A stretch of 52,785 nucleotides of DNA from a virus. Lineage: Duplodnaviria; Caudoviricetes. Shown piece by piece: positions 3,317 through 52,785 of this stretch (positions are counted from its first letter, which is position 1; every line of letters begins with the position of its first letter). The notes under the pieces are model-generated. The model saw only the letters and a program-made list of their open reading frames with translations. It did not search any database and was not told the DNA's origin. The position numbers were made by a program, and so were the translations under genes. The stretch spans positions 1 through 52,785 of the IMG/VR virus record IMGVR_UViG_3300035145_002598; one strand, 5' to 3'.

Positions 3317-4125
3317 TGACGACGTTCCCGAGCAGAGAGCCGACGAAGGTCAGACCCCGCGTCGACTTCGATCCTGAGCGATTCAGGAAACATATATTCG
3401 CGAAGGGCGTCGATCTGACGTGGGCGCAGTGCGCCGAGTGTCCCTGCGCTCGAAGCGCGAGCGACTTCACGCTCGACCTGAGCTACTCGAGCGCGTCGAC
3501 CGAGACAGGCGAAGCTCGACCCGATTGTCCGCTATGCGACGGTCGCGGGTACTTCTGGCACAGCGAGCAGACGATCCGCGCGATCGTGACATCCGGATCG
3601 AGTAAAACCGATTCGTTCGCGGTGTACGGCGAGTACGCTCGAGGGATGGTGTCGATCACGACGCTGCCCGAGCACCTCCCCGCGTTCGGCGATCGCTTCG
3701 AGATCGTCGACTCCGTGATCGTGTTCAGAGAGACACAGACGCGGACGGCGAACGCGGTCGAGGCGCTACGCTATCCGATCCAGTCACGGACGTTGGACCT
3801 CGCGACCGGCGAGACCGTCGTTCGTGTGTTGCGCTTGCAGTTCGCCGACGCGAACGGCTTGAGCGCCGAGGCTAACTCGTTAACAGAGGGAGAGGATTTC
3901 GTCGTCACCGAGGACGGCGAGATCGACTTCTCACTCGGCGACGCGAGCGGAACAGCGCCCGCGGAGGGTCTGCGATACAGTGTCTCGTATTATGCGCGTC
4001 CTCGTTACTACGTTGCTAGTCACCCTCACACTCATCGCGACTCTACACGGCGACGTAAGAGCACCACCGAGGCGCCGATCACGCTCCCGATACAAGTCGA
4101 GTGCTCGCTCGAGTTCATGGGGTGA
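3316..4125 (+). CDS. Putative head-completion/neck protein
   Basis: CAECPC...CPLCDGRG Cys motif as in the equivalent gene of Twort-like phages; coupled to the previous gene (TGATG). Confidence 0.65.
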   Translation: MTTFPSREPTKVRPRVDFDPERFRKHIFAKGVDLTWAQCAECPCARSASDFTLDLSYSSASTETGEARPDCPLCDGRGYFWHSEQTIRAIVTSGSSKTDSFAVYGEYARGMVSITTLPEHLPAFGDRFEIVDSVIVFRETQTRTANAVEALRYPIQSRTLDLATGETVVRVLRLQFADANGLSAEANSLTEGEDFVVTEDGEIDFSLGDASGTAPAEGLRYSVSYYARPRYYVASHPHTHRDSTRRRKSTTEAPITLPIQVECSLEFMG

Positions 4126-4129
4126 GACG

Positions 4130-4879
4130 ATGCCACAGATCGAAGCGAACACGGACGCGCTACTCGCTGCGTTAGGTTTCTCACCCGCTGAGTCGCGACG
4201 TCGATCGCAGACGCTCGCGGACCTCGTGCTCGCCGAGTGGAGCGCGGGCGCGCGTAACAAATTGAACTCGACGCGCGCTGCTTACCTTCGATCGCTTCAG
4301 GTGCGCGACGTCTCGCCGTCTGGCTTCATCTGCGGATTACCCGCGTCACCCTCGACCGCGATCATCGCGCACATGGTCGAGCAGGGGATGGGGAGCGGGG
4401 GGATCGGCACGACCGGACCTTACGATGTCCGTAAATATCTACTCCAAGCGTCGACGCGTAACATACGCCGACGCAAGGACGGCGGGCTCTATTTGCACGT
4501 CCCCTTCGGACACAAAGCGAAGGATCTTAAAGCGAACTACGGCTCGCTCATCGCGAACGCAGCGCGCAGACTCCAGGCGACGACGACCGACCCCAACCGG
4601 CGAACGCGCTACGGTGGGCGACTCCCCGAGGGTCAAGTGCCTAAGCTGAAACCGCACCACGTGACCGACCCGCTCGCGGGTCTCGTGCGTCTCGCGTCCA
4701 CGTACTCTCGAGGGGCGGGAGGTCGAGCGCGCACGCAGACGAGCGGATATCGGACGTGGCGCACAGCGAGTTACGCGAACACTCACCCCGACGCGTGGAT
4801 GAGCTCAGGGATCACCCCGCGCCGAATCATGGACGACGTGTCGAGGGAGCTCCCGACGCTCATCTCTCAGGTGTACTAA
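4130..4879 (+). CDS. Putative neck/tail-completion protein
   Basis: ATG at 4130 just after the previous stop; basic protein with YLHVPF and YRTWRTAS motifs; position in the structural module. Confidence 0.55.
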   Translation: MPQIEANTDALLAALGFSPAESRRRSQTLADLVLAEWSAGARNKLNSTRAAYLRSLQVRDVSPSGFICGLPASPSTAIIAHMVEQGMGSGGIGTTGPYDVRKYLLQASTRNIRRRKDGGLYLHVPFGHKAKDLKANYGSLIANAARRLQATTTDPNRRTRYGGRLPEGQVPKLKPHHVTDPLAGLVRLASTYSRGAGGRARTQTSGYRTWRTASYANTHPDAWMSSGITPRRIMDDVSRELPTLISQVY

Positions 4880-34445: not shown

Positions 34446-36107
34446 CTAGTGTGTCGTGTAATTGCCCTGAAGCGCCTCGCCCCACCAGATATCGAGCCCG
34501 TCGTCCGCCTCGTCCGCGTTGAGCACGTCACCCCGTTCGTCGTAAATCGCGCCCGTCGAGTCGACATAACTATGCGCGAAGCGGTCCCGCCGTAACACGC
34601 TGTGAGCGATCCACAGCGAGAGGACCGTGTCGTCATGTTTCTCTCTGCCGAGCCCCCAGAGCTCCGAGATCAAAGGCTCGATCATTCGGCGATCGTGCTC
34701 GGTGCGACTCGGGAGGATGACTTTCCCGTTTTCAAAGAGCACCGAGAGCGACGCGACACCGCTCCACGGGTCCGCTTTTTTCGCGCCCGTGGTCAGGTGT
34801 GGCACGATCGGGAGGTCCGTCGATTGCCGGAGCCCGACGTAGTGCATCTCGCCGAACGCGTTACGCTCGACCGCGATACTCGAGACGCGCCCCCTGAAGC
34901 GGTTGAACTCCTCGATCACAGCGGTGCGGAGCTGCGCGGGCGTGAGCCCTCGCCGTCTAAACATCCCGAGGAGGTAGTGATCGCCGGTGTCCAAGTCGCG
35001 CGCCCACGTCGTCCCGACCGTGTAATCCGTGTCTCGCGCTTCCGCGTCGCGTACTGATTGGACGAGCGAGAAGTCCCAACCTTGCACGATCTCGAGGCGC
35101 TCTACGTATGGCGGGATCTCGTACATCGAGAGCTCGGAGCCTCGAGCCTTCGCGTCGCTCAACCACTCGAACCGAAACGCGCTCGCGCTGTCGTCCTGCA
35201 CTTGGTGCTGAAACTCACGCGCGAAGAGCTGCGCGCCCATCGAGCGACGCTCTCGCAGGAGGTACTCGATCGGTCTCTCTTCGGGCCACAGCACGCGCGC
35301 CTCTCCTTGTATAGAGACACCGCAGATCACCTCGCGCCCGTCGCGCGTCTCGGTCTCGTACGCGTAGCTCTCCGGCATCTGCGCGACCGCGGGGTCCTCG
35401 ATCAGCGCCCACGAGGGATCATTGATCATGTCCCCGTACAAATCGTCGTAATGTTTACGCGTCCCGATGACCGCGATCAAACCCCCACGCGACAACATCG
35501 GGAGCACCGTCGCTTTAAACCATCTTTTGGTCTTCGCTCGCTGCGCGCTCGTGTGACAACTCATGTCACTCTCCAAGTCATCCGCGAGGATGAGGTCGAA
35601 GTGAGCTCCGGTCACAGCGCCCCCGCTACCGATCGCCGTGATCGTAGGATCGACGCTCTCGAGCTTGCGCGGGACATACACTTGCGTCTGTGTCCACGGC
35701 GTCTCCTCAGACTCGAACGGGGTGCAACCGCGCGCGGGATCGCTCGCCCAATCCGCGACGATGCGCTCCGATCGTAGCAGCGCTTTGACGCGCCTCATGC
35801 GCTTCTCAGCCTGCGACGCGCTCTCGCAGATCCAGAGGATACGGACGTCTCGATTCAAGCAGATCGCGCGTACTGCGTAAGTGATGGCAGCCTCGGTTTT
35901 GCCGTGGTCGCGTGGCGCGAGTACGAGCTGCCGTCCCTTGTCTCCCTGTTCGCGCGCACCTTCCCACGTTCGATCGAGTTGATCGAACCAGTTCGAGCGG
36001 TGCGACGCGTAACGCATCCCGCAATAGTACGTATCGTAAAACACGGGCGACACCGAGCTGAGCGCTCGTCGCTCGATCGCTGACGCGGGTAGTAATGGGC
36101 GTGACAT
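34446..36107 (-). CDS. terL: Terminase large subunit
   Basis: APRDHGKT (Walker A), GGAVTGAHFDLILADD (Walker B), IGTRKHYDDLYG, nuclease motifs QGWD, DYTV and KHDD. Confidence 0.92.
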   Translation of the reverse strand: MSRPLLPASAIERRALSSVSPVFYDTYYCGMRYASHRSNWFDQLDRTWEGAREQGDKGRQLVLAPRDHGKTEAAITYAVRAICLNRDVRILWICESASQAEKRMRRVKALLRSERIVADWASDPARGCTPFESEETPWTQTQVYVPRKLESVDPTITAIGSGGAVTGAHFDLILADDLESDMSCHTSAQRAKTKRWFKATVLPMLSRGGLIAVIGTRKHYDDLYGDMINDPSWALIEDPAVAQMPESYAYETETRDGREVICGVSIQGEARVLWPEERPIEYLLRERRSMGAQLFAREFQHQVQDDSASAFRFEWLSDAKARGSELSMYEIPPYVERLEIVQGWDFSLVQSVRDAEARDTDYTVGTTWARDLDTGDHYLLGMFRRRGLTPAQLRTAVIEEFNRFRGRVSSIAVERNAFGEMHYVGLRQSTDLPIVPHLTTGAKKADPWSGVASLSVLFENGKVILPSRTEHDRRMIEPLISELWGLGREKHDDTVLSLWIAHSVLRRDRFAHSYVDSTGAIYDERGDVLNADEADDGLDIWWGEALQGNYTTH

Positions 36108-36166
36108 CGTGCGCTCCTCGTGCTATGCGTTGCGCTGTTTTAACCATCGTACCACAGGATATTAAG

Positions 36167-36787
36167 ATGCCTTGCTTGACTCCGAAGATCGACCTCGCGC
36201 TCTGGTGCTTCACCGCGCTCATGAGCCTCCTACCCGCCGGAGCCTCTCCGAGCTATAGAGCGAAGTACACGCGCATCATGGAGGGGCGCGTCGGGCGCTG
36301 CGTCTCGATCGCTCACCGAGCCGAGCAGGAGGAGCTCGACCCGCTCATCGCGATCGCGGTCGGCGCCTACGAGTCAAAGTTCGACCCGACCGCGAAGTCC
36401 TCGAGGGGCGCCGTCGGGGTGATGCAGATGACCCCCGTCGCGTTGAAGACGTGGTGCTCGGCTCACTCGATCAGGACGGGCGCGCCGAGCTTCGACCCCT
36501 CGCTGTATGCGACACGAGAGGAGATCCGTCGCTGTGATCACATCGGGGCAGCGATTCGATATCTCAGATACGTCGACGCGAAAGCGCCGGACCTCTGCTC
36601 GGCGCTCGCGATGTACAACGGGGGGACGCGGGGGAGCTGCAGAGGTCGAGGGGGCGCTTATGGTCGAGCCGTCGTACGCTTGATGTCTAAGGCTCACGAC
36701 GAGGTCGTCGATCACTATCGTCTCCTCGACGTCATTCAAGCGCACTATGACCTAGACGACGAGCGCGCGGAGTGTGCGGACGACTAG
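36167..36787 (+). CDS. Lytic transglycosylase (SLT domain) with hydrophobic N-terminus
   Basis: YESKFDPTAKSSRGAVGVMQM (catalytic Glu, GxMQ), GAAIRYL, ALAMYNGG; start codon uncertain. Confidence 0.85.
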   Translation: MPCLTPKIDLALWCFTALMSLLPAGASPSYRAKYTRIMEGRVGRCVSIAHRAEQEELDPLIAIAVGAYESKFDPTAKSSRGAVGVMQMTPVALKTWCSAHSIRTGAPSFDPSLYATREEIRRCDHIGAAIRYLRYVDAKAPDLCSALAMYNGGTRGSCRGRGGAYGRAVVRLMSKAHDEVVDHYRLLDVIQAHYDLDDERAECADD

Positions 36788-43112: not shown

Positions 43113-44102
43113 TCACTCAAAGAGGCTTAGCTGATCGCAAGCGCTCGACGTTTGACGCTCGACGCTCTGCGCTGCTGCGCTTGAGGGTTTCGAGCACATA
43201 GGGGAGCGCGTATCCGCGCGCTTTAAGATTCGCGCGATCTGATTCACAGCGTACGCGCCCCCCTTGCTCGTCCGATATCCGCGACGCGTGAGCTCGTCAG
43301 TGATCGCGCGGAGCGAGAGCCCCTTCTCGCGTAGATCTTGGATCACGTAGACGAGTTGCGGGTGGAGCTCGTTCAATGAAGGACGAGCGCGATGAGGCTT
43401 GCGCGGATTCACGTTCGGTGAGCGTGGCTTACGCTTGGGACGCGTCACCTCGATCCCCGTACACCAACGGCGTAACGTCGTCCCGCTTGGTGCTGATCCG
43501 CTACGCGCACGAATCCCCTCGCGTTTACACGCCTCGTGTAGACGCGTGAAGCTGAGACCCTGAGCGCGGAGCTCGCGGGCGCGCTCGATCTGCGCGCGCT
43601 CCTCCTCGTTGGGGACGATGTGTCCGTCGACCTCGCGGTATCCGAGAGGGACCGTCCCTGTACGCTCTCCGCGCTCGCGCTTCGCTCTGAGTGTCGCGCG
43701 GACGCGACGAGAGAGGAGCGCTTGCTCGTACTGCGCGACCATGTCGAGCATCGAGCGGAGGAGCGCGGACTCTGGCGACGCGTCCGTCTCTGCGTCGAGT
43801 GTGATGAGGCGCGCCCCCACGCGCTCGATGTGACGCCCGGTGAGCGTGTTGTCCATCGCGTCTCGACCGACGCGATCGCGCGCCGACGCGAGGATCGTGT
43901 CACCCGCTGAGAGGACGTTGAGGAGCTCACCGAAACCAGAGCGCTTGACCGCGGGAACTCGACCGCTGCATGTGTCAGAGAACACGCGAGAGACGTGCCA
44001 CCCCTGCGCGGTCGCGTGTGTCTCACACTGCGCGCGTTGTCTCTCGAGGCTCGTCTCTTGTCGCGGTGTGCTCCTGCGGGTGTAGATGTATACGTGTGTC
44101 AT
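43113..44102 (-). CDS. Serine recombinase (resolvase-type catalytic domain plus two recombinase-type DNA-binding modules)
   Basis: YTRRST..QETSLERQ, DTCSG...RSG, DRVGRD, G.VPLGY; ATG 44102 with GAGGAG RBS. Confidence 0.88.
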   Translation of the reverse strand: MTHVYIYTRRSTPRQETSLERQRAQCETHATAQGWHVSRVFSDTCSGRVPAVKRSGFGELLNVLSAGDTILASARDRVGRDAMDNTLTGRHIERVGARLITLDAETDASPESALLRSMLDMVAQYEQALLSRRVRATLRAKRERGERTGTVPLGYREVDGHIVPNEEERAQIERARELRAQGLSFTRLHEACKREGIRARSGSAPSGTTLRRWCTGIEVTRPKRKPRSPNVNPRKPHRARPSLNELHPQLVYVIQDLREKGLSLRAITDELTRRGYRTSKGGAYAVNQIARILKRADTRSPMCSKPSSAAAQSVERQTSSACDQLSLFE

Positions 44103-44546
44103 CGGCTCCTCGTCTCTCCGTTGGTTGTGTTTGTTAAACCGATAACACACCCCGCGCGACGAGGCAACGGTGAGCGATGAGGCGACGGGGCGCTTATGGT
44201 CGAGCGGTGAGCGTCGGAGCTCAGCGACACACGACGCGCTCACACACGCGCGCTCGTTGTCGATGGTGTGAGGGACGACGCGCTCGCAGAGGTGCGAATT
44301 CTTGCGATCACGCACTCCGGCCTCGCACACGCGCCCGCACGCGCCCACCCTCGCCTCCGCGATCCGCAGCCCCTCGAGGTCATCCCCCGCGTCTACCTGG
44401 TTCTCTGAGACAAGCTCGTCGAGCGCTCCCGCGATACGCGGATCGATGGAGCTCGTCGTTCGCCGGTCCACGTCTCAGCGTTCACTCTGGAGCGCTTCGC
44501 GCAGCTCTCCGGAGGTGCGTTTCGCGATTCGCGATTTACGCGTTTA

Positions 44547-48660: not shown

Positions 48661-48873
48661 ATGAACACAGAGACAGAGATAAAACTATGGGCGAAGATCG
48701 TGCTCCCCACGGTCGGCGATCCGGTCGCGGAGCGCGAGGCGATCAAGCTGTATCACGACACGCTCCGCACGTTGAGGGAGGTAACGCGCGCGCTGAGCTC
48801 ACCAGTCGCGACCACGCGCGCGCGTTTCGTGTCTGCGCTCGAGGGTGAGCGGACGGTGGAGGGTGACGAATGA
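48661..48873 (+). CDS. Hypothetical protein, first gene of the repeat-protein operon
   Basis: GGAGAG RBS; ATGA-coupled to the next gene. Confidence 0.55.
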   Translation: MNTETEIKLWAKIVLPTVGDPVAEREAIKLYHDTLRTLREVTRALSSPVATTRARFVSALEGERTVEGDE

Positions 48874-49268
48874 CACCCGAGCAGATCTACAACGCGCACG
48901 CGAACGAGCGACGCAAAGCGCGACGCGCGAACGAGACCGAAGAGGAGCGCGAAGCGCGTCGCGCCAAACGCCGAGCGTATGATCGAGCGCGCGCGAAGGA
49001 GCGCAACGCGCGACGCCGAGAGCGTCGAAGGGAGATCATCGAGACGGAGACCGCGCGCGAGCGCTCAGCGCGTAAGGAGCGAGAGCGCGCGTATGAGGAG
49101 CGTCGACGCGCGGAGCGGACGCCCGAACAACGAGAGCGGATCCGCGCTTATCAAGCGGAGTACAGACGCCGACGCAAGGAGACGGAGACGCCGGAGGAGT
49201 ACCAGGCGCGCAAAGACCGCGCGAACCTGCTGCGCAGAATCAGATACGCGATGAGGAGCGAGACATGA
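48870..49268 (+). CDS. Arg/Glu-rich 23-aa (STPR-like) repeat protein 1
   Basis: ETARERSARKERERAYEERRRAE / RTPEQRERIRAYQAEYRRRRKET / ETPEEYQARK... Confidence 0.7.
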   Translation: MTPEQIYNAHANERRKARRANETEEEREARRAKRRAYDRARAKERNARRRERRREIIETETARERSARKERERAYEERRRAERTPEQRERIRAYQAEYRRRRKETETPEEYQARKDRANLLRRIRYAMRSET

Positions 49269-50062
49269 GCCGACGCAAAGAGACCGAAGAGGAGCGCGAA
49301 GAGCGTCGCCTGTACCGCAGGATCATGTATCAGCAGTACATCGAGAACGAGACAGAGGAGCAGCGCGAGCGGAGACTCGCGCAGATGAGAGAGCGCAAGC
49401 GTCTGCGGACTCAGCGCGAGACGCCGAAGGAGCGCGCGAGGCGACTCGAGAAGCACGCGCTTCACGCGCGGGTCAAGTACGCGCTCAACCGCGACGAGCT
49501 CCAGGCGTATCACCGCGAGCGCTACCAGCGCTTGAGCGAGGAGCAGTATGAAGCGTACCTCGCGCGCAACCGCGCGAGCCGGAAGCGTCGACGCGAGGAG
49601 GAGACGCCCGAGCAGCGCGAGGAGCGACTCGCGAAGCGTCGCGCTAAGTATCACGCGAAGAAAGCAGCGGAGCGCAGATCGAGCGAGCGCGAGCAAGCCG
49701 ACAAGCGAGGCGCGCGGGTGGAGACCGAAGAGGAGCGCGAAGCGCGACTCGCATATCGTCGAATGGCGCGCAAGGTCGCGCTCGAGATGGAGACCGCAGA
49801 GCAGAGGGAGGAGCGACTCGCGAAGCGTCGCGCGCGCCGAGCGGAGCGCACAGCGCGAGAGACCGAGGAGCAACGCGAGCGCAGACTCGCCTCGAGCGCG
49901 GAGCGGAGACGCGCGAAACGCGCCAACGAGACCGAGGAGCAACGAGAAGCGCGACGCGCTAAGCGCCGAGTTGCGAACATCGAGGAGACGCCCGAGCAGC
50001 GCGAGGAGCGACTCGCGAAGCGTCGCGCTAAGTATCACGCGAAGAAAAGGAGCGAGACATGA
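49265..50062 (+). CDS. Arg/Glu-rich 23-aa (STPR-like) repeat protein 2, about ten repeats
   Basis: Repeated ETxEQRExRLA... units at mostly 23-aa spacing. Confidence 0.75.
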   Translation: MSRRKETEEEREERRLYRRIMYQQYIENETEEQRERRLAQMRERKRLRTQRETPKERARRLEKHALHARVKYALNRDELQAYHRERYQRLSEEQYEAYLARNRASRKRRREEETPEQREERLAKRRAKYHAKKAAERRSSEREQADKRGARVETEEEREARLAYRRMARKVALEMETAEQREERLAKRRARRAERTARETEEQRERRLASSAERRRAKRANETEEQREARRAKRRVANIEETPEQREERLAKRRAKYHAKKRSET

Positions 50063-50316
50063 TGCAGACACGAGAGGAGCGTCGCGCGTATCTGCGCGAG
50101 TACATCCAGCGCCCGGAGGTGATCGCGCACCGTCGCGCGTGGCACGCGGAGCGACGCGCGAGGATGAGCGACGAGGAGCTCGCCGAGCGACGCGCGTATG
50201 ATCGGCAGTGGAGAGCGGATCGTCGCGCGAGGATGAGCGACGAGGAGCGCGCGGATCGTCGCGCTAAGGACCGAGAGTATCAACGGAGACGACGCGCCGA
50301 GAGGAGCGAGACATGA
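50059..50316 (+). CDS. Arg/Glu-rich 23-aa repeat protein 3
   Basis: MSDEELAERRAYDRQWRADRRAR / MSDEERADRRAKDREYQRRRRAE. Confidence 0.7.
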   Translation: MMQTREERRAYLREYIQRPEVIAHRRAWHAERRARMSDEELAERRAYDRQWRADRRARMSDEERADRRAKDREYQRRRRAERSET

Positions 50317-50660
50317 TCAAACAGGACCCGACGGTGTACGAGACGCCGATCAAGAGACGCGGAGCGGGGCGACCGCGTAAAGCGCAGAAGCAGACAGCGG
50401 AGGAGCGACGCGCGTATCAGCGCGAATACAACCAGCGCCCCGAGGTGATCGAGAGGCGTAAGGCGTGGATGCGCGAGTATCGGAGGATGCGGCGATCCAC
50501 AGAGACGCCCGAGGAGCGCGAGGAGCGCCTCGCCTACGCGCGCCTATGGAGAGAGGCGAAGCGCGCGAGCGAGACCGACGAGGAGCGCGAGGCGCGCCTC
50601 GTGCGTCAACGTATGTATCAGCGCAAATACAAGCAACGAAAGAAGGAGCGAGCGCAGTGA
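50313..50660 (+). CDS. Arg/Glu-rich 23-aa repeat protein 4 with an AT-hook-like motif
   Basis: KRRGAGRPRK; ETPEEREERLAYARLWREAKRAS / ETDEEREARLVRQRMYQRKYKQR. Confidence 0.7.
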   Translation: MIKQDPTVYETPIKRRGAGRPRKAQKQTAEERRAYQREYNQRPEVIERRKAWMREYRRMRRSTETPEEREERLAYARLWREAKRASETDEEREARLVRQRMYQRKYKQRKKERAQ

Positions 50661-50875
50661 CAGAGGAGCAACGAGAGAAGCAGCGCGCATACATGCGCGA
50701 GTACATGAGGAGGAAGCGGGCGACGGAGACGCCCGAGGAGCGCGCCGAGCGTCTGCGCTTCGACAGGATGCGCGCGCGGATCCGCTTAGACGCTGAGACA
50801 GAGGAGCAGCGCGAGCGGAGACTCGCGAAATGTCGCGCGTATTACCACGCTAAGAAGAAGGAGACGCAACGATGA
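50657..50875 (+). CDS. Arg/Glu-rich 23-aa repeat protein 5
   Basis: GTG start in a GTGA overlap with AAGGAG RBS; three 23-aa units. Confidence 0.65.
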   Translation: MTEEQREKQRAYMREYMRRKRATETPEERAERLRFDRMRARIRLDAETEEQRERRLAKCRAYYHAKKKETQR

Positions 50876-51105
50876 GCGATCCAGTGAACCACCCCTCGCA
50901 TTATCGCGGGGGCGTGTATGAGGCGATCAACGTGATCTCCGCGTGGAGGCTCGACTTCGCGCGCGGGAACGTGGTCAAATACATATGTCGCGCGGGGTTG
51001 AAATCGAAGGAGACGGAGCTCGAGGACCTGCTCAAAGCGCGGGAGTATCTCGATTTCGCGATCGCTCAGCTCTCCGAATCGGAGTCCGGCGAGTCCGACG
51101 ACTGA
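50872..51105 (+). CDS. DUF3310-family phage protein
   Basis: DPVNHPSHY...F.RGNVVKYICRAGLK...EDLLKAREYL. Confidence 0.85.
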   Translation: MSDPVNHPSHYRGGVYEAINVISAWRLDFARGNVVKYICRAGLKSKETELEDLLKAREYLDFAIAQLSESESGESDD

Positions 51106-51542
51106 GAGGGGAGCCAACGAGAGACGGTCTCATCGAGCTCGACGCGCTCGGGTGACGGTCTCTCTCTGAGCTCGAGCGCGCTGAGTCGCTCGATGATCGC
51201 GCGCTGTAGATCCGTGATCATGTCGCGGTGAATCTGGAGTTGAATCTGCGCGTCCCTCAATCGGGCGATCAGCGCCTCGCGGTCCGCGTTCGCCTTGCCG
51301 AGCTTGTCGCGCAGCTCCTCGACTTCGCTCGGATCTCGACCGCTCGCGATCGCGAGCATCGACGAGATTGAGCCGGTGATGACGCCGAGAATACCCACCA
51401 ACACATCCCGATTCTGATCGACGATCGTGACGCGCGCGAGGAACACGACGAGCCCGACGACGAGCAGTAAAAAGAACACGGCGAACCACCAACCGCGTCG
51501 CGCTTTGTATTCGTCCAACTCCGTCACCTGTTCGCTCACCAT
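51066..51542 (-). CDS. Two-TM membrane protein with C-terminal coiled coil
   Basis: WWFAVFFLLLVVGLVVFLA and VLVGILGVITGSISSMLAIA; heptad tail; start overlaps the cyclase stop. Confidence 0.7.
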   Translation of the reverse strand: MVSEQVTELDEYKARRGWWFAVFFLLLVVGLVVFLARVTIVDQNRDVLVGILGVITGSISSMLAIASGRDPSEVEELRDKLGKANADREALIARLRDAQIQLQIHRDMITDLQRAIIERLSALELRERPSPERVELDETVSRWLPSQSSDSPDSDSES

Positions 51543-52363
51543 TGCTTAAACGCCTCTCTGATCGCTTCGACGGCGATCACGATATAATCGAACCAATCTA
51601 ACCAGGTCACGCCCCACAAGTGACGCCCATCTCGATTCGACATCCACGGGTATATCATAGCGAGAATGTAACCGACGCTGATCCAAGCGAGCCGATACGC
51701 GCTCCACAGCGCCCACTCCCTCCAACGACGATGACGCGCGCGCGATCGAATCGCTTTAGCGCCCCCGACGCGCTTCGCCTTCTCGTTACCGCGCGGAGGT
51801 TGAAGCGACTCGATGGTGTCGCCCACAGCGTACAGCGTGACGGGGTCTCTGACACCCTTGAATCGATAGAGCCCAACGCACGCGAAGCGCGTCCCCTTGG
51901 GCGTCTGTGGGTTCGTTCGATTGCGTACCGCGCGCATCGCGTCCCGCGTGAGGATGACTTGACCCGCTTCGCAGACGGACATCGCGCGCGCGGAGATGTT
52001 CTTCGCGACCCCCTCGAGCTCGACGGACTTCGCTCCGACGGCTGAGTAGAGCTCGTCCTGCGTAACCTCCACAATGTCCCCGTAATGAACGCCGATCCGC
52101 GCGTCGATCTTGACGCGTTGCGGGATCTGGGCTTGATAGTGAAGCGCGAAATTGAGCGCGTCGATCGGTCGCTCGAACGACAACAAGAAGCCGTCGCTCC
52201 TGTCGATCTCGCGCCCGTTGAATCGGTAGAGCAGAGAGCGCGCGAGCCGGTCGTGATATTGTAACCACGTCGCAGCGCGCATCGCCCCGACGCGTTGCAC
52301 GAACGCGGTCGAGCCGATCAGGTCGAGCAATACGATCGCGAGTCTGCGGTGCTTGAGCTCCAT
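51536..52363 (-). CDS. Class III nucleotidyl (adenylate/guanylate-type) cyclase domain protein with C-terminal membrane anchor
   Basis: IVLLDLIGST, DRSDGF, RIGVHYGDI, GVAKNISAR, GQVILT and GLYRFKGV; C-terminal hydrophobic helix; ATG 52363 with GAGGA RBS. Confidence 0.85.
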   Translation of the reverse strand: MELKHRRLAIVLLDLIGSTAFVQRVGAMRAATWLQYHDRLARSLLYRFNGREIDRSDGFLLSFERPIDALNFALHYQAQIPQRVKIDARIGVHYGDIVEVTQDELYSAVGAKSVELEGVAKNISARAMSVCEAGQVILTRDAMRAVRNRTNPQTPKGTRFACVGLYRFKGVRDPVTLYAVGDTIESLQPPRGNEKAKRVGGAKAIRSRARHRRWREWALWSAYRLAWISVGYILAMIYPWMSNRDGRHLWGVTWLDWFDYIVIAVEAIREAFKQW

Positions 52364-52383
52364 GTGTCCTCGATTCAGCGCGC

Positions 52384-52395
52384 GTGTGATACACT
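52384..52395 (+). promoter_or_regulatory. Putative late promoter (GTGTGATACACT) for the CHAP-like gene
   Basis: Same motif as 5518-5529 and 34431-34442; 29 nt upstream of ATG 52425. Confidence 0.5.
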
Positions 52396-52424
52396 CCACA
52401 TGATAACAGAGAGGAGCGTCACAG

Positions 52425-52785
52425 ATGGACGAGCACAACACCAGAGTCGAGAACTGTATCGCGCGCGCAGAAGACGCGCACGCGTTTAACGTCACCGAGC
52501 CCCCTCGCGGGTATTACGTCGATAAGGACGGCGTGATCTTGAAGAAGGGCGTGAGCGGATTCAGCGAGGTGTCGGGCGAGGACGAGTGTCACCGCGGAGC
52601 CGAGATCATCCGATACATCAACGACGGTCTCGGGTGGTCTAAAGAGGACCCCTACACCAACTCGTACAACCTGAAGATCGGCGGGTTCAGTTGGTGCGGA
52701 GCGTTCGCTGCGTGGTGTGACATCACGCTGAAAGCGGAGCTCCGTAAAAAAGTGATGCCGTCCACGTATCGCTTGTGGGAGTTCT
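52425..52785 (+). CDS. Partial gene running off the window; CHAP/NlpC-like cysteine amidase or peptidase, possible endolysin
   Basis: GAGGAG RBS; open to the window end; my translation MDEHNTRVENC...GGFSWCGAFAAWC contains the WCxxFxxW CHAP-type motif. Confidence 0.55.
   Translation, partial: MDEHNTRVENCIARAEDAHAFNVTEPPRGYYVDKDGVILKKGVSGFSEVSGEDECHRGAEIIRYINDGLGWSKEDPYTNSYNLKIGGFSWCGAFAAWCDITLKAELRKKVMPSTYRLWEF

Follow-up and report, generated by a model that had tools for sequence, protein, structure and literature searches.

A predicted class III nucleotidyl cyclase of tailed phages is paired with a conserved two-helix membrane protein

Introduction

Two overlapping genes of the IMG/VR virus record IMGVR_UViG_3300035145_002598, which encode a putative class III nucleotidyl cyclase (P0001) and a small protein with two predicted transmembrane (TM) helices (P0002, also called the partner or the 2TM protein below), are the subject of this report. 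The complete record served as the window of analysis (52,785 b, linear; CheckV completeness 87%). The closest described enzyme is XC_0250 of Xanthomonas campestris. According to PMC3770947, its cyclase domain converts GTP to cyclic GMP (cGMP) in vitro and has no activity on ATP, and its gene forms the XC_0249/XC_0250 arrangement together with a gene for a cNMP-GGDEF protein, in which a cyclic nucleoside monophosphate (cNMP)-binding domain is joined to a GGDEF domain. P0001 shares with XC_0250 and the NCBIfam family TIGR04510 the EIDRSDGF and GAK..E.EG.AK motifs and the Asp/Glu pair in the base-selecting places. In both, the domain leads through a PP..(E/D)K linker into a helix. Unlike proteins of the XC_0250 type (~830-880 aa), P0001 has 275 aa and lacks the ~600-aa C-terminal region that bears TPR repeats. 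Its neighbour is a 2TM protein instead of a cNMP-GGDEF protein, and its type was found only in viruses.

Among solved structures, the best matches of P0001 are the cyclases Rv1900c (1YBT) and Ma1120 (4WP9), with a sequence E-value of 2.8e-9 and a fold E-value of 5e-14. Like Rv1900c, P0001 is without the canonical Lys. In contrast to P0001, these two proteins, which are 24-25% identical to it, are soluble or differently anchored, have no 2TM partner and carry other base-selecting residues.

Pycsar systems (PycC with PycTM or PycTIR) resemble the locus in their two-gene layout, a cyclase of class III fold followed by a small membrane protein. The original prediction had drawn this analogy, and Pycsar membership is rejected here on four grounds. 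PADLOC, which presumably includes Pycsar models, returned no family for P0001 at E<=1 and only PD-T4-6 at E 0.035 for P0002; the partner has no cNMP-binding domain; it also occurs without a cyclase (49/49 loci of distant relatives); and in most carriers the pair stands in a late operon. The nearest relatives of P0001 also differ from PycC in that they make cGMP and not cyclic pyrimidines (PMC3770947). P0002 can further be compared with SLATT proteins (PF18142 and relatives), with which it shares two TM helices and a following helix (profile positions 7-97 of 121). Unlike in SLATT systems, the enzyme encoded beside it is a class III cyclase and not SMODS or SLOG.

To our knowledge, the known dealings of phages with cyclic nucleotide signalling are to degrade or sponge host immune messengers. 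In open-access full texts and bioRxiv no description of phage-encoded class III cyclases was found, nor was one found in the accessible portion of a jumbo-phage survey (PMC7824862). The enzyme family as such is already known; what is new is the virus-only, truncated and partner-locked form.

Results

The cyclase gene is always followed by the partner gene

The gene pair consists of the following features.

51536-52363, minus strand: class III nucleotidyl cyclase gene P0001, 275 aa (translation, TIGR04510, Foldseek, 655 relatives)
51066-51542, minus strand: P0002 gene, 158 aa, two TM helices and a coiled coil (translation, 1403 relatives)
51536-51542, minus strand: stop/start overlap ATGGTGA of the cyclase and partner genes (sequence)

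With the cyclase stop codon TGA at 51536-51538 and the partner ATG at 51540-51542, the two genes overlap by 7 nt; that stop and start overlap had been noted in the original prediction. The same stop/start overlap is present in 73 of 78 evaluable related loci, and the remaining five have a gap of 1-15 nt. Conservation of the gene neighbourhood, which had been proposed as a check, is equally clear. Twelve cyclase loci were found in IMG/VR, and the partner gene directly follows in all ten that have downstream DNA. A partner motif scan of IMG/VR gave 295 relatives; among the best 80 of these 295 loci, the cyclase lies directly upstream on the same strand in 79. Because the 80th has only 133 nt of upstream DNA, the pair is present in 79/79 informative loci. 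The pairing spans phages of very different GC content (29-64%) and portal type.

The partner family extends further. A profile search of 1.84 billion representative proteins gave 118 more distant partner relatives at E<=0.001, and no cyclase was found within 4 kb in any of the 49 IMG/VR loci of two distant partner groups (P0287 and P0262 types). These locus scans used the single proteins P0287 and P0262; the alignments of short 2TM relatives were too divergent. The dependence is thus one-way: the cyclase always occurs with the partner, and the partner family also occurs without the cyclase. The 2TM protein belongs to an older phage membrane-protein family that is also present, cyclase-less, at the same genomic place.

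P0001 has the features of an intact class III cyclase

Within P0001, two regions can be assigned.

51794-52363, minus strand: catalytic domain, aa 1-190 (Rv1900c and XC_0250-type alignments)
51638-51724, minus strand: C-terminal helix, aa 214-242, with a basic stretch before it; presumed membrane anchor (AlphaFold)

The catalytic domain contains the motifs VLLDLIGST (D14), IDRSDGF (D54 and D57) and GAKSVELEGVAKNISAR (E115, N122 and R126). On the alignment with Rv1900c, D14 and D57 map to the metal ligands and N122 and R126 to the transition-state pair; the Rv1900c positions N342 and H402 are assigned as we take them to be given in the literature. D54 stands where adenylyl cyclases have Lys, and E115 where they have Asp. 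All six residues are invariant among 37 aligned relatives. The metal-binding Asp residues and the Asn/Arg pair named in the original prediction are therefore all present. The absence of the KxxGD pattern was also correctly seen: the loop reads EIDRSDG and is one residue shorter than that of Rv1900c. Nucleotide specificity, which had been left open, indeed cannot be read from the usual base-selecting residues.

The score of P0001 against PF00211 is 17.3 bits, under the gathering cut-off of 21.9, and covers residues 71-179 only; PF00211 is carried by 45% of the 1722-member cluster to which P0001 belongs in the ESM Atlas. P0001 is, by its sequence, a member of a divergent class III subfamily. For its AlphaFold model (predicted local distance difference test, pLDDT, 85.6), the best Foldseek matches are Rv1900c and Ma1120, adenylyl cyclases of mycobacteria (E 5e-14; target TM-score 0.86-0.90). 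Motifs and model together indicate that P0001 is a phage-borne class III cyclase predicted to be catalytically intact. The open reading frame has an alternative GTG start at 52495, which would give 319 aa. The start at 52363 (ME..) is shared by all 37 aligned relatives and is preceded by GAGGA at a distance of 5 nt.

The hydrophobic C-terminal anchor of the original prediction stood in part. AlphaFold still predicts a 29-residue helix (214-242) at this place, the corresponding helix is more hydrophobic in relatives of P0001, and in the alignment with XC_0250-type proteins it falls on a helix that is plainly transmembrane (hydropathy 2.12 and 2.17). In P0001 itself the hydropathy is marginal, with a maximum of 1.34 over 19 aa, below the threshold of 1.6 applied here.

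P0001 groups with a bacterial guanylate cyclase family

P0001 matches TIGR04510 with E 3e-45 and 155.1 bits over model positions 7-204 of 814, which bears out the resemblance to a "peptide modification system cyclase" that had been named in the original prediction. The full-length cut-off of 400 bits is not reached; true members score 433-1237 bits. In one bacterial family, TIGR04510 was found over its cut-off in 41 of 61 genomes. A gene with a cNMP-binding domain lies directly upstream of the TIGR04510 gene on the same strand in 5/5 genomes checked, and in 3/3 checked the frame of that gene also has a GGDEF domain. In addition, the protein of locus L202 has D41, D71, L73, A150, L157 and A161 at exactly the numbers given in PMC3770947, and the protein of L201 has them at an offset of 7. 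Because of this cNMP-GGDEF linkage and the residues at the numbering of the paper, TIGR04510 is identified at the sequence level as the XC_0250 guanylate cyclase family. This ties an entry that NCBIfam calls "putative peptide modification system cyclase" to the family of an enzyme with an experimental characterisation.

Over residues 10-196, P0001 is 36-37% identical to XC_0250-type proteins, and the two have in common D14, S18, D54-D57, R89, H93, K112, E115, E117, K121 and R126. PMC3770947 gives L157 and A161 as the substitutes for the transition-state Asn and Arg in XC_0250. In our alignment the Arg is conserved in the XC_0250 type, the Asn position is occupied by Pro, and L157 and A161 fall elsewhere. 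The bacterial proteins have a TM helix at 223-241 (L201) and 230-248 (L202), to be compared with the helix at 214-242 of P0001. For the bacterial family, a predicted TM helix directly behind the cyclase domain points to a receptor-type topology.

A quick maximum-likelihood tree was built from 68 rows, two duplicate outgroup rows being left out. The 43 phage rows form one group in it (SH-aLRT support 100), which is nested in a clade shared with the XC_0250-type rows (SH-aLRT 99), and eight ordinary PF00211 cyclases are placed beyond the midpoint root from that clade. In our reading, the phage enzyme goes back to a receptor-type guanylate cyclase, probably acquired in a single event, of which the catalytic domain and the membrane helix were kept. 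By homology only, cGMP is the best guess for the product of P0001.

P0002 is predicted to place a coiled coil beneath the membrane

Three elements can be assigned in P0002; both TM helices are strongly hydrophobic on the Kyte-Doolittle scale.

51429-51485, minus strand: TM helix 1, aa 20-38 (hydropathy 2.85)
51348-51404, minus strand: TM helix 2, aa 47-65, Gly/Ser-rich, followed by an invariant GRDP motif (hydropathy 2.18)
51165-51332, minus strand: long helix, aa 71-126 (AlphaFold; pLDDT 79-87 in this part)

These positions accord with the two TM helices and the coiled coil of the original prediction. The alignment of the family contains two invariant blocks. The first runs through TM helix 2 and the turn behind it (G53, T56, G57, S60, S61 and M62, then G68, R69, D70 and P71), and the second lies in the long helix (D87, R88, A90, L91, I92, R94, L95, R96 and D97). 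A loop of ten residues separates the TM helices, and K13, R15 and R16 stand just before helix 1. As basic residues precede the first helix, both ends of P0002 and its coiled coil are likely to be cytoplasmic. The family is 60-70% identical across phages of 29-64% GC. No match of P0002 to the cNMP-binding domain PF00027 was obtained at E<=1, and PADLOC and PHROG searches with P0001 and P0002 gave nothing meaningful.

Both families look restricted to viruses

In a collection of 5.8 billion proteins, relatives at E<=0.001 numbered 655 for the cyclase and 1403 for the partner, almost all of them unnamed metagenome proteins. With so many relatives, the observation is far beyond chance. Among 50,697 GenBank phages, no match was obtained by blastn with the region or by tblastn with P0001, P0002 and P0287.

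Cellular genomes were scanned with one genome for each of 185,579 prokaryote species. Single-sequence patterns gave no match, and two family-invariant motifs gave 53 loci. The proteins at these loci are 33-43% identical to the phage enzyme (51-55% in three partial matches), match it in the cyclase domain only, and begin long frames of 627-1458 aa in the 42 loci where the frame is closed; the other 11 run off the locus. A cyclase of the 275-aa type or a nearby relative of P0002 was found in none of the 53. In the ESM Atlas, P0001 falls in its cluster of 1722 members with 99% viral proteins, and P0002 among clusters that are 100% viral. Both families therefore look virus-only.

Metagenomes from 12 studies, sampled in wetland, marine, estuary and salt-marsh settings, contain near-identical DNA. 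Both genes are also matched by contigs that stem from the RNA libraries of two studies, and one such contig spans the gene junction. These contigs, taken from Logan, are short, DNA may be present in the libraries, uncovered parts are uninformative, and neither strand nor level is readable; they hint at transcription of the pair.

Most pairs lie in a late operon

In the mid-GC majority of carriers, the genes run on one strand in the order ThyX, TerS and TerL, then a methyltransferase, ThyX or dCMP deaminase, then cyclase, 2TM, portal, protease and scaffold. Most pairs are therefore located in a late operon between terminase and portal, and not in a defence island. Within 4 kb, 70/80 pair loci and 42/49 cyclase-less loci have a portal gene or a portal-linked head-module domain, and the pair stands away from the portal in a 312-kb phage and an 85-kb phage. 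The cyclase-less relatives of the partner occupy six distinct contexts.

L158 (also L155 and L168): 2TM gene between portal and head-morphogenesis genes
L151: 2TM gene directly before an amidase (phrog_822) and a holin (phrog_3427)
L167: 2TM gene after a 393-aa uncharacterised protein, with tape-measure-like genes further upstream
L170 and L184 (two contexts): near genes for single-stranded DNA-binding protein and nucleotide metabolism
L185: the slot that the pair has in this window, with DUF3310 on one side and the ~240-aa gene plus portal on the other

At L185 a lone 2TM gene (4001-4531, plus strand) occupies this slot, and a dCMP deaminase gene stands where the cyclase would be. From its gene order, L185 looks like a natural cyclase-less state of the locus.

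The high-GC lineage of the window is arranged differently. Here the pair is transcribed away from the ~240-aa pre-portal gene and towards a DUF3310 gene, with which it is convergent. One short intergenic region is of interest for its expression.

52364-52424, no strand: divergent intergenic region of 61 nt, with a ribosome-binding site and a palindrome; probable promoter of the pair

The ribosome-binding site GAGGA is at 52367-52371 (TCCTC on the plus strand). The palindrome TGTGATACACTCCACA at 52385-52400 is of CRP/FNR type with one mismatch, and no other match is present in the window. It differs by 1-2 changes in eight close relatives and is replaced by TATAAT in six others, a sister group. 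Because about 0.9 matches per window are expected by chance and the sister group has TATAAT in its place, the palindrome is not claimed as a CRP-type operator; it is probably part of the -10 region of the promoter. A consensus promoter scan of 50700-52785 gave none, and the two terminator-like sites in that range both lie inside genes.

Proposed role of the pair and competing explanations

The reading that we prefer, at a probability of about 0.42, is that the pair is a virus-only operon in which the cyclase produces a cyclic nucleotide at the inner membrane of the host and works with its 2TM partner to condition a late event or host receptors. P0001 would produce the nucleotide (cGMP by homology) as a cyclase dimer on the cytoplasmic face of the membrane; it would have kept the membrane helix of its lineage and lost the C-terminal region of ~600 aa. 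P0002, translationally coupled to P0001, would sit together with it in the membrane and probably touch it, since the cyclase never occurs without the partner. The partner may dock or regulate the cyclase dimer, replacing the lost C-terminal region, or may itself be controlled by the cyclase. The signal would then condition a late membrane event (lysis timing or exclusion) or act on host receptors. A bolder form of this proposal holds that a large virus-only family of phages synthesises cGMP or another cyclic mononucleotide at the membrane of the host. The 2TM protein would then be a membrane switch of a new type, lacking a classical cNMP-binding fold and controlled by the nucleotide, and would set the time of lysis or close the cell to further infection; this form we hold to be quite unlikely.

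Several observations weigh against the preferred reading. In the window the pair is opposite in strand to its neighbours and apparently has its own promoter, and late expression is not implied there. No cNMP-binding domain was matched anywhere in the window at E<=1 (the record being 87% complete). The partner, which stands without a cyclase in 49/49 distant-relative loci, must have a function of its own and need not regulate the cyclase. The hydropathy of the presumed P0001 anchor is marginal. As to the product, specificity is carried over at 36% identity only, and position 122 is Asn in P0001 and Pro in the XC_0250 type.

If the proposal holds, its interest lies in the direction of the signalling. 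A very large virus-only family keeps an apparently intact cyclase, which descends from a bacterial cGMP synthase and is locked to a conserved membrane protein, in phages that span 29-64% GC and were sampled from marine, estuarine and wetland sites. Were the enzyme active, phages themselves would make a second messenger, and the question would arise of what a virus gains from cGMP at the membrane. Were the switch reading also true, bacterial viruses would write second messengers and not only degrade or sponge them.

The strongest specific rival, which we nevertheless regard as unlikely, is lysis control. The 2TM protein would be a holin or antiholin-like protein of class II holin topology, and the cyclase would tune its firing. 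The predicted topology of P0002, two TM helices with both ends inside, fits this idea; the window has no annotated holin, and among its genes with two TM segments P0002 is one of few plausible ones. One cyclase-less relative (L151) even stands directly before the amidase (phrog_822) and the holin (phrog_3427). However, clear lysis genes lie beside only this one of the six cyclase-less contexts, and a separate holin is already there. The divergent ~240-aa neighbour of the pair has invariant Cys and His residues and a TIEGN motif, matches TIGR02594 weakly (3/3 full-length relatives, E 0.001-0.045), and in its L185 relative shows a faint match to an endolysin PHROG (E 0.00099). Yet the TIGR02594 matches are far under the cut-off, a PDB profile search was empty, and the only clear murein hydrolase of the window (SLT, 36095-36787) is 15 kb off. 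Holins are usually small and fast-evolving. P0002, in contrast, has 158 aa with a coiled coil of 55 residues and keeps its 60-70% identity over the whole GC range, and no PHROG holin family matched it.

A suicide module like those of Pycsar or CBASS is distinctly improbable. The cyclase would sense a second infection, and its nucleotide would open a SLATT-like pore formed by the 2TM protein, giving superinfection exclusion. The architecture of a cyclase with a small TM protein is the right one, the pair in the window is its own transcription unit on the opposite strand, and a serine integrase suggests that the phage may be temperate. With what seems to be a promoter region of its own and the integrase, lysogenic expression and a role in exclusion are possible for the window. 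But most pairs lie inside late packaging and head operons, PADLOC was blank for the cyclase and gave the partner only PD-T4-6 at E 0.035, and no cNMP-binding domain is present, while the partner stands alone in all 49 distant loci. The family is also absent from the 185,579 cellular genomes, prophages included. The similarity of P0002 to SLATT is weak. SLATT_fungal matched P0002 with E 0.001 and 21/34 relatives at E<=0.01 (best 6.9e-5), but AbrB, an unrelated membrane family, matched as many (22/34). All SLATT scores, those of the relatives too, are under the Pfam cut-off; P0002 reaches 19.6 against 26.5 bits for PF18142 and 17.5 against 35 for NF033635. When the P0002 alignment was compared by hhalign with one bacterial SLATT_fungal member, the sole member found by a PF18142 search of 201 genomes, the probability in this weak test was 1.2%.

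Slightly less credible still is host take-over only, in which a flood of cGMP or cAMP drives host receptors, for instance of the cNMP-GGDEF or CRP type, and the 2TM protein is an unrelated neighbour. In its favour, the bacterial relatives signal to a linked cNMP-GGDEF protein (PMC3770947), a receptor gene is absent from the phage, as judged by a window free of cNMP-binding matches at E<=1, and the partner family has a life independent of the cyclase. The co-occurrence in 79/79 loci and the overlap in 73/78, over varied GC and portal types, nevertheless argue for a joint function, and a diffusible signal would presumably need no membrane anchoring. Because the dependence is strict and one-way, the genes are translationally coupled and both proteins would be anchored in the membrane, a merely diffusible host-directed signal is disfavoured relative to the membrane-bound operon that we prefer.

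That the 2TM protein is a head-assembly factor, which would help to initiate the portal or prohead at the membrane as T4 gp40 reportedly does, with the cyclase as an unrelated passenger, is very improbable. A portal or head-module domain within 4 kb in 70/80 pair and 42/49 cyclase-less loci and the position between portal and head-morphogenesis genes in L158 speak for it. But genes for ThyX, dCMP deaminase and methyltransferase are likewise found in the space from terminase to portal, which looks like a general accessory slot, the loci are those of related phages and not independent cases, and in the 312-kb and 85-kb phages the pair is not near the portal.

Neighbouring genes and other features of the window

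The window was recognised as a tailed phage from PHROG and Pfam scans. The same scans gave genes for the major head protein, tail sheath, baseplate proteins and large terminase subunit, and for DNA polymerase, ribonucleotide reductase, thymidylate synthase, dCMP deaminase and a serine recombinase. Three further features were noted.

52425-52784, plus strand: neighbour gene, truncated by the record end to its N-terminal 120 aa; the full-length protein has ~210-240 aa and is encoded ahead of the portal in relatives
43113-44471, minus strand: large serine recombinase with Resolvase and Recombinase domains (domain scans)
36095-36787, plus strand: protein with an SLT domain (E 3.9e-10), the only clear murein hydrolase in the window

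The product of 52425-52784 is 54% identical to the 240-aa protein of locus L009 (3307-4029, minus strand). Invariant FxWCGAF, HIT and TIEGN motifs characterise this ~210-240-aa family, which gave no Pfam or PHROG match and no match in PDB sequence and profile searches; it may be a papain-like murein hydrolase encoded just before the portal. The gene was also considered as the N-terminus of the portal. This was rejected, as the 866-aa portal frame of L002 has no match in the window and the neighbour corresponds to the ~240-aa pre-portal protein. The order in relatives is ~240-aa gene, portal, phrog_2859 domain and DUF5824 protein. Because the record breaks inside the ~240-aa gene and no portal gene was found in the window, unlike the order in relatives, a few kb are probably missing between the end and the start of the record (52785 and 1). 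A scan of 50700-52785 found no tRNA.

Given the serine integrase, the phage may be temperate. Despite the serine recombinase, relatives of the cyclase pair number 0 in the 185,579 cellular genomes. The plus-strand SLT gene is flanked by terminase and ribonucleotide reductase genes on the minus strand; no TM protein is encoded beside it.

Five tandem overlapping genes at 48870-50875 (plus strand) encode repeat proteins that are extremely rich in Arg and Glu. We know of no described phage role for DNA-binding repeats of the STPR type. Two of these genes match Pfam STPRs (PF21107), 49265-50062 with 48.1 bits, which is over the cut-off, and 50313-50660 with 23.2 bits, and a relative in locus L003 also matches PF21107, with 42.3 bits.

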